Of a stretch of DNA of 36,849 nucleotides, positions 29,584-33,040 are shown piece after piece. The position numbers and the translations under genes are program-made. Position 1 is the stretch's first letter. The number at the start of each line of letters is the position of its first letter. Under the pieces are notes generated by a model that saw only the letters and a program-made list of their open reading frames with translations, was not told the origin of the DNA and made no database searches. This DNA comes from a virus (taxonomy: Duplodnaviria; Heunggongvirae; Uroviricota; Caudoviricetes): the IMG/VR virus record IMGVR_UViG_2778261087_000007; one strand, written 5' to 3'.

Positions 29584-29997
29584 TCACTCCCCGGCAGTTG
29601 CCCGTTGAAATGCGGCACGGTACAGCACAAGAAGGCGCCGGTATTCGTCAATAAAGCCTTCTGCCGTTTTAATCCCTTTCACTGCCACGCTGTGGGTTGT
29701 CATGTCCAGTACGAGCGCCATTTCTGACGATGACCAACTGATTACGCTGTGGTCGTGCCCGTTGATGTGGAACAGGCCCAGATTCAGGCTGTGATTCAGG
29801 TCTCTGACGTCAACACGGTAACGGTCATCAACGGTGAAGGAGAAATCACCTGATGTGGTGATACTGCTGGCTGCCTGTTTACAGGCGCGGCGGTAATAGT
29901 CATGCCAGTCATTGAGGCGGGAGGCGAGGTGTGGATCCACCGACCACATCCAGTTAAAAAAATCCTGAATATCTGAAAGTTCCTTAACGTTCTTCAT
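29584..29997 (-). CDS. hypothetical protein upstream of replication gene
   Basis: 137-aa ORF whose stop overlaps the replication gene start region. Confidence 0.5.
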   Translation of the reverse strand: MKNVKELSDIQDFFNWMWSVDPHLASRLNDWHDYYRRACKQAASSITTSGDFSFTVDDRYRVDVRDLNHSLNLGLFHINGHDHSVISWSSSEMALVLDMTTHSVAVKGIKTAEGFIDEYRRLLVLYRAAFQRATAGE

Positions 29998-30065
29998 GTG
30001 AACCTCCGGTAACAGACGTGCGGAAGCCTCCCGCGTACGGGTGCGGGATGGCTTCAGGATGTTGT

Positions 30066-30293
30066 TTAGTGGTGGTGTTGCTGGTTGATAAGGTTCTGCA
30101 GTTCCGCGAGATCATCCGCCAGGTAGCTGAAAACAGCGGCACAGTAACGGTTTGACAGGGCGTGAGTGCGCTCATGCAGCATATTGATGTGCATGATTTG
30201 CGCGACGCGTGATGCGCGGAAAAGTCTGCGGTTGATTTCGGTGCGGATGTGAAGGCGCTCAGCGCGGGCGCGCTGTTGTTTGCGGTTTGCCAT
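30066..30293 (-). CDS. small basic hypothetical protein
   Basis: 75 aa, Arg/Lys-rich N-terminus, ATG with GAGG about 9 nt upstream. Confidence 0.45.
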   Translation of the reverse strand: MANRKQQRARAERLHIRTEINRRLFRASRVAQIMHINMLHERTHALSNRYCAAVFSYLADDLAELQNLINQQHHH

Positions 30294-30470
30294 GGTGTGG
30301 CCTCGTATGTAGTAAGTTTTAAAAACTCACCATCCAGAGCTGCGAAACTGTGGGTGGCGAGACGTACGAGGTTCGCAGTACCGGCTACATACGATCCCGG
30401 CCCGACCGAAGTCGGCCCCGTACGCCCCGCCATAATTCTGATGCGAAAAAGACGTGGCAATGCAGTACGC

Positions 30471-30493
30471 ACAAAAAAACCGCTGGCGCGGTT
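30471..30493 (-). terminator. intrinsic terminator downstream of dam
   Basis: On the minus strand: stem accgc/gcggt with 4-nt loop followed by 7 T. Confidence 0.6.
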
Positions 30494-30581
30494 GTGCGCG
30501 TATGTAGTCAGCAGGCTGCGAAACCCGGCACCCGTTTTATAAGGTGCAGCGGGAATGTAACCCGACTGATTACGGCATGGC

Positions 30582-30631
30582 AAGCGGTTTTTTTGTGTGT
30601 GCATGGCGATTACTCAGTCCGGTAGCAGTTC
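30582..30631. repeat. direct repeat copy A (50 bp) spanning the dam stop
   Basis: aagcggtttttttgtgtgtgcatggcgattactcagtccggtagcagttc; identical to copy B except T7 versus T5. Confidence 0.85.
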
Positions 30632-31629
30632 ACGGAGTACGGCATCAGCGGTTGTTCTGCGGTGGAAGAGGTAAACATCGCGCTGTAAGTTGTATCTCCC
30701 GTCACCGTGCCGCAGTCCGGACAGTAGCCGCCGCCATGGCGACCACAGGCGTCGCACTGTCTCAGGGTGGCGATAACCTCCGGTGCTGGTTTTCGGGTTT
30801 TTGCGCCAACGCTTCGCGGTGCCTGGATGCGGTTCATCCGGTAGCCCTGATAAATGCGCCGTGCTTCCGGTGTGTCGGAGCCGGAAATGGTTATGCTGGT
30901 CATTCCACCTGTTTCCTGTGAAAGACGGTCAAGCGCTGCTCTCAGGCGAACGTGTTCGTCCTTCGTGAAGGGTTTTTCGTAGGCGGTGAAATTGTCCCAG
31001 CCACTGAATGACAGGTAAGGGGGATCGCAGTACACGCAAAGCGTACTACCTATGCTGAACAGGTGACTGGCAGTGTTCAGCGTTTTCTGAAAATCGCCAT
31101 GAACAAGCAGTGTTCTGGTGCTGTTTGCCTTGTCTGCAAATGCGCGGATTTCCCGTTCAGGGAAGTAGGGAGCCCGGTAGCCACCGAATGGGACATTAAA
31201 ATCCCCTTTTTCATTCACCCGGTACAGGCCATTAAAGCAGTGCCGGTTGAGGTATAAAAACATGGCGGCCAGCCGTAATTCGCGACGGTCGCTTATTCCC
31301 GTGCTCAGGAATGCATGATTCTCTGCATTAAAGGTGTTACGGATAGCGAGATAGTCAGTCCTGTTATTGTGTTCCAGGAACAGGTCTTTTGCTTCGTTGA
31401 TCAGACAGTCAGTGTTGTCCCGTGCTGCCCGACAGAAATTAATCAGTGCACCATTGGAATCACCCAGGATGTATCGGCTGTAACTGGTGTTCATGAATAC
31501 CGATGCGCCACCCACGAACGGCTCAACCAGGCAGTCCGCTTCTGGCAGATGCGCCTTCAGTGTGTTCATGATGCGGCTTTTCCCGCCCACCCATTTCAGC
31601 GGTGTGCCGGATAACAGTTCTTTGCTCAT
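30610..31629 (-). CDS. dam: DNA adenine methyltransferase (Dam family) with Cys-rich C-terminal extension
   Basis: 339 aa; N-terminal PLKWVGGK, FVGGASVF and catalytic DPPY motifs; C-terminal CDACGRHGGGYCPDCG zinc-ribbon-like segment; good SD AAGAGG. Confidence 0.85.
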   Translation of the reverse strand: MSKELLSGTPLKWVGGKSRIMNTLKAHLPEADCLVEPFVGGASVFMNTSYSRYILGDSNGALINFCRAARDNTDCLINEAKDLFLEHNNRTDYLAIRNTFNAENHAFLSTGISDRRELRLAAMFLYLNRHCFNGLYRVNEKGDFNVPFGGYRAPYFPEREIRAFADKANSTRTLLVHGDFQKTLNTASHLFSIGSTLCVYCDPPYLSFSGWDNFTAYEKPFTKDEHVRLRAALDRLSQETGGMTSITISGSDTPEARRIYQGYRMNRIQAPRSVGAKTRKPAPEVIATLRQCDACGRHGGGYCPDCGTVTGDTTYSAMFTSSTAEQPLMPYSVNCYRTE

Positions 31630-31676
31630 AACGCGGCCTCTTTGTTACAGGTTTCGTGTGTCAACAAATCCCATGA

Positions 31677-31724
31677 AAGCGGTTTTTGTGTGTGCATGGC
31701 GATTACTCAGTCCGGTAGCAGTTC
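31677..31724. repeat. direct repeat copy B (48 bp) spanning the stop of the gene upstream of dam
   Basis: Same sequence as copy A with a 2-nt shorter T-run. Confidence 0.85.
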
Positions 31725-32261
31725 GTACAGCACAATGTCGTCGGCAGTGCGGCGGCGACTGTAAAGAAGATATGCTGTGTTAGTGGTCGCTTTTATTTGC
31801 AGTGTGTGATTGATGTGTTTTGCTATCGCGGCGAATGTCATACACTGTTCATCACGTAGTTCTGTTACCAGTTCCACCAGGCGATCGCTGTATCTGGTCA
31901 GGTGGTGCAGATCTCCGCATTTCTGCAGTCTGTAACCACGTTTACTCAGGTGTTCCTGTACTGTGCGACGGGTACATCCCACCATGACTGCCATTTCCTG
32001 CGCTGTTCTGGTGTGACGGTTTCTGATGAGAAAATTGATTTCTTCTCTGCTCAGCGTCTTTCTCTTGCGACCAATTAATCCACGATCACGTAAAACACGA
32101 ATTCTGTGCATAACTGCGCTGCGGGTGCGTTGAATTCGTTCAGCCATCTGGTATGTGCTGTTTTCCTGATAAAGCGAGGTAAGCATCTCGTCTTCCTGCC
32201 GTGTCCATGGTTTCACGTGCGCAGGGGCTTTGCCTGGTATCCCCATTGGTTGAAGTATCAT
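31707..32261 (-). CDS. putative DNA-binding protein with repeated HTH-like segments
   Basis: 184 aa; three segments of pattern W..E(D/E)..L...... followed by R/K-rich helix (KPWTRQEDEMLTSLY..., LSREEINFLIRNRH..., TRYSDRLVELVTEL...). Confidence 0.45.
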   Translation of the reverse strand: MILQPMGIPGKAPAHVKPWTRQEDEMLTSLYQENSTYQMAERIQRTRSAVMHRIRVLRDRGLIGRKRKTLSREEINFLIRNRHTRTAQEMAVMVGCTRRTVQEHLSKRGYRLQKCGDLHHLTRYSDRLVELVTELRDEQCMTFAAIAKHINHTLQIKATTNTAYLLYSRRRTADDIVLYELLPD

Positions 32262-32761: not shown

Positions 32762-33040
32762 TTATGCTGAAAAGCGACCTGACTGTGCCCGGAGTTCTGC
32801 CAGTTCGCGCTCAAGGCGGAGGGTTTTCGCATGGAGTGCGCCGATGATGTTGTTTGCTGACGTCATGAGCATGTTTTCTATTTGCAACGTCTGGCTGACA
32901 AAAAATGATGGGCTGTTATCGTAGTCCATTTCCGATAGCACTTTCTTTCTTGCATTAATCAGTTCTGCCAGCGCTTTTTGTGTGGCTGTGACAACTTCCT
33001 TGCTGGTAAACATTTCGCTGATTTTTTCATTGCTGCACAT
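32762..33040 (-). CDS. hypothetical early-region protein
   Basis: 92 aa, predicted helical; ATG preceded by ACGGAG. Confidence 0.45.
   Translation of the reverse strand: MCSNEKISEMFTSKEVVTATQKALAELINARKKVLSEMDYDNSPSFFVSQTLQIENMLMTSANNIIGALHAKTLRLERELAELRAQSGRFSA

Follow-up and report, generated by a model that had tools for sequence, protein, structure and literature searches.

In the Dam methyltransferase of Escherichia coli (EcoDam; 2G1P/4RTJ), the reading of DNA has been assigned to individual side chains: the first base pair falls to K9 and Y138, the third to L122 and P134, and the G of the fourth to R124, while N120 makes base contacts and Y119 intercalates (PMC4417163). In RecE (exonuclease VIII), a workhorse of recombineering, the nuclease domain (564-866) can genetically replace the entire protein, the large non-catalytic N-terminal part is still referred to as 'of unknown function', and the full-length protein outperforms the nuclease domain in linear-linear recombination (PMC11611040). 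Here we have analysed a stretch of 36,849 nucleotides (IMG/VR record IMGVR_UViG_2778261087_000007, Caudoviricetes; hereafter the window) in which a P2-like prophage encodes an orphan Dam-family methyltransferase whose C-terminal end joins a conserved four-cysteine (Cys4) module, common to prophage Dams and RecE, to a stretch of 19 residues best regarded as a recombination scar. The methylase itself is routine: the P2-like prophage Dam clade is already in the databases, and such homologues are common and annotated. The interest lies in the shared module and in the clean recombination scar. The protein and its parts are laid out as follows:

30610..31629, minus strand: the dam open reading frame (ORF) of 339 aa, taken from the ORF list; an orphan Dam-family (D12, alpha-class) N6-adenine DNA methyltransferase.
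30766..31599, minus strand: catalytic core homologous to EcoDam, residues 11-288 (phmmer to 2g1p/4rtj, E=4e-50; query 11-288 corresponds to EcoDam 8-267).
30673..30756, minus strand: Cys4 zinc-ribbon-like mini-domain, residues 292-319, CDACGRHGGGYCPDCGTVTGDTTYSAMF, delimited by prophage Dam conservation, RecE homology, NF007259, PHROG 20376 and a profile search.
30610..30669, minus strand: the allele-specific last 19 residues (321-339), SSTAEQPLMPYSVNCYRTE, and the stop codon; an apparent remnant of the 3' end of the upstream helix-turn-helix (HTH) gene, read in another frame.

All the defining features of the Dam family that can be tested on a sequence are present in the window protein. The Pfam family PF02086 (D12 N6-adenine methyltransferase) covers residues 13-270 (E=7e-51; 173.8 bits for a cutoff of 22) and the NCBIfam model TIGR00571 ('dam') scores 227.4 bits for a cutoff of 114.85. 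Motif I (EPFVGGASVF, residues 36-45) and motif IV (DPPY, residues 202-205) are visible in the translation in the alpha-class order, and both align with the EcoDam motifs. These matches, together with the P2-like prophage context, bear out the first-pass annotation of this DNA, which had proposed a phage Dam methyltransferase with canonical N6-adenine methyltransferase motifs. The host-Dam equivalog NF008152 gives 213 bits, below its cutoff of 441; the window Dam is thus a phage paralogue and not the host orthologue. The top PADLOC model is 'orphan methyltransferase', and no candidate for a restriction enzyme or defence-system partner was found among the neighbours of dam by Pfam, gene context or PADLOC; these neighbours are the HTH protein, small proteins without a Pfam match, the IsrK and C4 RNAs, the derepression protein and gpA. 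A non-specific methylase of the M.EcoGII type was also considered and rejected, since M.EcoGII is a class beta methyltransferase (PMC7544214) and is unrelated, only the D12 alpha-class family matching the window protein.

In the phmmer alignment, EcoDam K9, Y119, N120, L122, R124, P134 and Y138 correspond to K12, F132, N133, L135, R137, P147 and Y151 of the window protein. Six of the seven residues that read GATC are therefore identical, Y119 being replaced by Phe, and the conservation of these contacts leads us to predict that the target is GATC, as for the host Dam. The resemblance extends to the alpha-class D12 signature and to an alignment that covers nearly the whole of EcoDam. The window Dam differs from EcoDam by insertions at about 107-118 and 183-190, by a second substitution (EcoDam R137 to Gly), by a 51-residue Cys4 extension, and in being both prophage-borne and orphan.

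This extension was the feature singled out by the first-pass annotation, which had described 60 residues with a C-X2-C-X9-C-X2-C pattern not present in host Dam and had taken them as a single unit. A C-terminal Cys-rich extension with a four-cysteine cluster past the catalytic domain does exist, but its length is 51 aa when counted from the end of the Dam-homologous core, or 69 aa from the end of the Pfam match, and the central spacer has seven residues instead of nine (C292-x2-C295-x7-C303-x2-C306; CDACGRHGGGYCPDC). Its absence from host Dam is supported by the alignment: EcoDam (2g1p, 278 aa) is aligned to residue 267, which leaves 11 residues for a Cys4 motif of 15. The tail is not a single unit; it is a composite of a conserved module followed by the 19-residue scar. 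A C-x2-C-x4-12-C-x2-C pattern occurs only once in the six-frame translation of the whole window.

The tail defines a short, sharply conserved module. The mini-domain spans residues ~289-320, with the consensus CxxCGxxGGxxCPDCG(P/A)VMGDATYxxMF, and is found in every P2-like enterobacterial prophage Dam examined, down to 47% identity. It is carried by 324-aa E. coli prophage Dams that are 87-92% identical to the window Dam (loci L001 and L002), and by P2-like Dams of Klebsiella, Citrobacter, Enterobacter, Salmonella and Raoultella phages or prophages at 47-52% identity; the sequence common to the prophage Dam tails is CxxC(G/D)RxGGGxCPDCGPxxGxxTY. The association of a D12 core with the Cys4 module is shared by the 324-aa E. 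coli prophage Dams WP_236128351 and WP_106894415 and by the Dams of Klebsiella phage ST16-OXA48phi5.4, Salmonella phages SW3/SI7/SEN4 and Enterobacter phage phiT5282H. These E. coli prophage Dams and the P2-like phage and prophage Dams of Klebsiella, Salmonella, Enterobacter and Citrobacter (47-92% identity in all) also resemble the window Dam in their position in the early operon, near the replication gene A. They end soon past the module or carry other short tails, whereas the window Dam has its 19 HTH-remnant residues, and the gene upstream of dam is different in the window.

Outside the methyltransferases, a homologue of the module is found in RecE. Positions 515-558 of the NCBIfam model NF007259 (exonuclease VIII) match window residues 280-322 (E=8.5e-6), and PHROGs 20376 and 2082 ('exonuclease') match residues 290-320 (E=8e-9). 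In the RecE of the K-12 Rac prophage, residues 517-544 are homologous to the mini-domain, with 17 of 32 positions identical in a pairwise BLASTP alignment (53%, E=7e-11). There the module lies between Exonuc_VIII (2-178) and DUF3799 (615-850), hence outside the nuclease domain, and is flanked by Q/E/P-rich and acidic linkers, the linker that follows it being strongly acidic. Rac RecE and the lambdoid RecE-like proteins have CxxCGxxGGxxCPDCGxVMGDATYxxxF in common with the window Dam and no similarity to it beyond this mini-domain, the window protein having neither Exonuc_VIII (PF06630) nor PD-(D/E)XK (PF12684). Moreover, the module is internal in RecE, between low-complexity linkers, whereas in Dam it directly abuts the catalytic domain, fused straight to the methyltransferase end without any linker.

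Fourteen Dam tails gave a profile with which a library of 1.84 billion representative proteins was searched. The profile recovered RecE-like proteins of 680-991 aa with a PD-(D/E)XK domain (E=1e-9 to 1e-7) and a dozen small proteins of 79-190 aa, annotated as 'hypothetical' and devoid of Pfam domains, in which the module is at the extreme C-terminus (E=1e-12 to 1e-8). The domain contexts of the carriers are Exonuc_VIII, DUF3799 (PD-(D/E)XK), an Rv2179c-like 3'-5' exonuclease, the D12 methyltransferase, or no Pfam domain at all. Two of the small module proteins belong to Mu-like phages, their genes being situated in the early region and bracketed by MuB/Kil and GemA/Mor, and one is encoded in a lambdoid recombination region adjoining RdgC and RecT. 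The module links three kinds of early protein across three groups of temperate phages. When genomes were scanned for GGGxCPDCG, 18 loci were confirmed, 16 of them in Enterobacterales genomes and the other two in metagenome-assembled genomes labelled Veillonella parvula and uncultured Bacteroidales bacterium; this taxonomic range may be an underestimate, as it derives from one degenerate pattern and from representative clusters. A tblastn search of phages with one small module protein (P0166) gave no match, and a homologue search with the 52-residue tail returned only two fragments, its word index being ill-suited to short queries. In the open-access literature, queries on the motif, on RecE and zinc, and on P2-like Dam retrieved nothing relevant to the tail module, although an earlier description elsewhere is possible.

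In three of the RecE-like carriers (P0146, P0156 and P0172), the RecE N-terminal region and the module are retained, but the PD-(D/E)XK 5'-3' nuclease has given way to an Rv2179c-like DEDDh 3'-5' exonuclease, an exchange that amounts to a swap of polarity on the same scaffold. Another carrier, P0150 (150 aa), has a C-terminal Cys4-GDATY module. Its gene belongs to the early region of a prophage (L034 3832-5453 for the locus) and begins at the stop codon of a methyltransferase gene of the MT-A70 family (PF05063). This arrangement, of which there is one example, may be the 'split' equivalent of the fusion between Dam and module.

In the 37 module sequences, drawn from every context, the four cysteines (C292, C295, C303 and C306), the P-D of CPDC, the following G and the T-Y pair are invariant; G13, G16-18 and G28 are nearly so, and V26, M27, M35 and F36 predominate. 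The core of the module is acidic (means of 0.9 Lys plus Arg and 2.9 Asp plus Glu; net charge about -2) with almost no conserved basic residues, and its conserved surface is hydrophobic and aromatic (V, M, Y, M, F). At the DNA level, the Dam and RecE modules share only 64% of their nucleotides, and different codons encode 11 of the 17 residues that they have in common, which points to a constraint acting on the protein and neither to a DNA site nor to a recent transfer. A conserved DNA element beneath the module was accordingly rejected, the Dam and RecE modules differing at most synonymous sites. We also set aside some very large proteins among the top profile matches (P0123-P0131, P0143 and P0151, with up to 19 stretches). 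These match the second half of the profile only, through cysteine-free ..FAGWxP(D/E)xxxVTGDATYTATY repeats that may be of the Listeria-Bacteroides type. The similarity of these repeat units to CPDCGxVxGDATYxxMF catches the eye and might reflect a comparable beta-hairpin, but homology is improbable.

No Pfam model covers the module, zinc-finger families appearing below threshold only (Prok-RING_2 at E=0.027, zf-ChsH2 and others). Among solved structures, the top matches of the tail profile are zinc ribbons, with the C-terminal ribbon of the Pyrococcus PIN-domain protein 2LCQ (VCIGCGRKF..GGVCPDCGS) at a borderline E=1e-3, followed by TFIIB, rubredoxin and bL32. The module shares with generic zinc ribbons such as 2LCQ, TFIIB and rubredoxin the presence of two CxxC knuckles, the 2LCQ match taking the form VCxGCG...GGxCPDCG. 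It differs from them by its much shorter spacer of seven residues and by a family-specific C-terminal GDATYxxMF. Both the binding of zinc and a ribbon fold are inferred from the Cys4 pattern.

Considering this evidence as a whole, we favour with moderate confidence the explanation that the window encodes a GATC-type orphan Dam with a zinc-stabilised docking module and a recombination scar. The Cys4 knuckle pair, followed by a strand or helix GD(A/T)TYxxMF, would be an ancestral feature of the P2-like enterobacterial prophage Dams. Such a module would act as a portable accessory knob, stabilised by zinc, which tethers different early phage DNA-transaction proteins to one common protein partner and docks through its conserved hydrophobic/aromatic face. 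If this is true, the partner would be a shared host hub, and the module might account for the better linear-linear recombination of full-length RecE. A bolder extension, which we advance tentatively and consider possible more than likely, is that the module is an undescribed portable adaptor domain of Enterobacterales temperate phages (P2-like, lambdoid and Mu-like), docking unrelated early proteins onto one conserved partner of host or phage origin. This partner could be a component of the replication or recombination machinery, for which the sliding clamp and SSB may be named as candidates in pure speculation.

Several observations weigh against the favoured explanation. The GATC prediction derives from the conserved contact residues only, and the Arg replaced by Gly at EcoDam position 137 is presumably a phosphate contact. 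AlphaFold modelled the full-length protein with 32 homologues at low confidence (mean predicted local distance difference test score, pLDDT, of 54.5, with the tail below 50) and the module alone, with 37 sequences, hardly better (mean pLDDT 57, again low confidence); a Foldseek comparison of this low-confidence module model with the PDB found nothing significant (best E=0.88). Zinc binding and the docking partner are thus candidates suggested by sequence. The idea of a partner stems from conservation across unrelated carriers, part of which could be explained by the shared constraints of a tiny zinc knuckle. Finally, the linker-free module of Dam, unlike that of RecE, could lie against the enzyme and exert its effect within the same molecule.

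As alternatives to a docking module, the direct binding of DNA and a solely structural role are less probable, and a part in choosing the methylated sequence is the least supported. The first-pass annotation had suggested that the tail could alter target recognition or regulation; in the first case the tail would be a further element for reading DNA, by which the target sequence is changed or lengthened. Some enzymes that act on DNA do recognise it through C-terminal zinc fingers, and the tail abuts the catalytic domain without a linker; but the GATC-reading residues of EcoDam are conserved, the module has a net charge of about -2 with almost no conserved basic residues, and the same module is found in the dispensable, non-catalytic part of RecE, a sequence-nonspecific exonuclease, as well as on small proteins without an enzyme domain. 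The module is therefore probably not a determinant of the methylated sequence, and we regard this reading as very unlikely. The acidity of the module and its lack of conserved Lys/Arg also argue against a non-specific clamp on DNA or single-stranded DNA, which would raise processivity or recruit enzymes to DNA ends or forks by direct binding. In favour of a clamp, nucleic acids are frequent ligands of zinc ribbons, ribbons that bind RNA or DNA are among the weak profile matches, and all the identified enzyme carriers (Dam, RecE and the DEDDh exonuclease fusions) act on DNA. The advantage of full-length RecE over its nuclease domain in linear-linear recombination would fit a clamp as well (PMC11611040). 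Against these stand the strongly acidic linker after the module in RecE and the hydrophobic/aromatic nature of the conserved surface, and we judge such a clamp unlikely, although less so than a DNA-reading tail.

Between these two in our estimation, and improbable, is a module without any interaction role, serving as a structural zinc staple or as a stability or redox switch for its own carrier. In its favour, the Cys4 cluster is very small and occupies the end of Dam and of the small proteins, and no partner is in evidence. A staple can however hardly explain why an identical 28-residue sequence, including the non-ligand VMGDATYxxMF, is under protein-level selection in unrelated carriers, nor why the module is often isolated between disordered linkers.

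Whereas the Cys4 module is common to all these Dams, the residues that follow it are specific to the window allele. The closest Dams (87-92% identity) stop 2-5 residues past ..MF, and the DNA encoding residues 321-339 aligns with the 3' end of the HTH gene, both that of E. coli strain 48 (L003) and the window's own. The elements involved are the following:

31707..32261, minus strand: gene of an HTH DNA-binding protein of 184 aa upstream of dam (HTH_11/HTH_20; PHROG 323 'transcriptional regulator'), apparent donor of the duplicated 3' end.
31683..31755: direct repeat copy A, comprising the HTH gene 3' end and 24 nt downstream, just upstream of dam; spacing of 1093 nt.
30590..30662: direct repeat copy B, 73 nt, comprising the dam 3' end and 20 nt downstream; its first 42 nt are identical to copy A.

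An alternative-frame ORF at 30614..30757 ends in ..RRTTADAVLRELLPD, to be compared with ..RRRTADDIVLYELLPD in the HTH protein; likewise, the repeat copy inside dam reads ..YLFHRRTTADAVLRELLPD and stop in the HTH frame, and the C-terminus of the HTH protein is ..YLLYSRRRTADDIVLYELLPD and stop. In strain 48, the HTH homologue is directly followed by the isrK/C4 region, without dam, and the similarity of the window to the dam loci of the L001/L002 type is limited to ~30673-31676. The alignment places the crossover at about codons 320-321, with a short microhomology TTTAC/CTCT. These data indicate that recombination placed a dam cassette of ~1.0 kb (~30673-31676) between the HTH gene, at its 3' end, and the isrK region. 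The joining duplicated ~73 nt of the HTH 3' end and cost dam its own last codons and stop, so that dam now continues through the HTH remnant in the wrong frame, as far as a new stop situated 27 nt ahead of the -35 hexamer of the isrK promoter. The locus exemplifies how module exchange in phages makes new C-termini by out-of-frame read-through. The change could also be reversible: recombination between the repeat copies flanking dam would delete the gene precisely and restore the HTH-isrK order of strain 48.

A sequencing or assembly frameshift at the end of dam had been named beforehand as an explanation that would make the extension an artefact, and the final 19 residues, read from sequence that is in frame for another protein, are in themselves what such an error could yield. 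However, public databases contain the 339-aa protein in identical form (P0001; 123 member sequences) under the annotation Dam family methyltransferase. Forty-five index blocks yielded it on 24 contigs, and each time it belonged to the same prophage, adjoining a molybdopterin oxidoreductase gene. With an identical protein on at least 24 contigs, from many independent assemblies, the tail is not a sequencing frameshift. For the Cys module, the artefact is already refuted: the breakpoint comes only after this module, which all relatives have conserved. Since these relatives end 2-5 residues past ..MF, no C-terminal part is missing, and the duplication is a real 73-nt DNA repeat. We consider the chance of an artefact to be negligible.

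The genes of this P2-like prophage follow one another in this order: integrase, CI-type repressor, Cox, DUF4761, DUF4754, small ORFs, HTH, dam, derepression protein, a 137-aa ORF, the replication endonuclease gpA, an Ead/Ea22-like protein, Ogr/Delta and portal. Every gene between Cox and gpA inclusive shares the strand of dam, and no terminator-like site was found between the HTH gene and dam. On these grounds dam most simply belongs to the early lytic operon and would be expressed only on induction. As the predicted target is the host's own GATC and the gene would belong to an early lytic operon, the absence of a new methylation motif in a lysogen would be uninformative. The 200 nt downstream of dam are 92-96% identical to phages of the P88 type (Xuanwuvirus) and carry the first two of these elements:

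30473-30547, minus strand: IsrK Hfq-binding small RNA (Rfam, 62.8 bits).
30350-30437, minus strand: C4 antisense RNA (Rfam, 79.8 bits).
30066-30293, minus strand: 'derepression protein' ORF of 75 aa, after the IsrK and C4 RNAs.

Each RNA has a promoter-like site ahead of it (30583->30554 and 30460->30432), and a hairpin resembling an intrinsic terminator is located at 30493-30478. This IsrK-C4-derepression segment has the appearance of a C4-antirepressor immunity unit of the P1/P7 type, carried by a P2-like prophage. Several public assemblies list as a gene an ORF of 206 aa (29984-30604, minus strand) with a faint Phage_ASH match; as this ORF overlaps the genes of both RNAs and the derepression ORF of 75 aa, the call is probably spurious.

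The region upstream of dam varies between prophages. In related E. coli prophages (L001 5718-6299; L002 4954-5772), a separate 3'-5' exonuclease gene precedes dam, and in L002 a ParE-like toxin gene overlaps the dam start, whereas the window has the HTH gene instead. These differing neighbours mark the sequence that precedes dam as a hot spot for the exchange of modules. The downstream portion of the repeat occurs a third time, as a partial copy (AGCGCTTTTTGTGTG) at 32970-32984.

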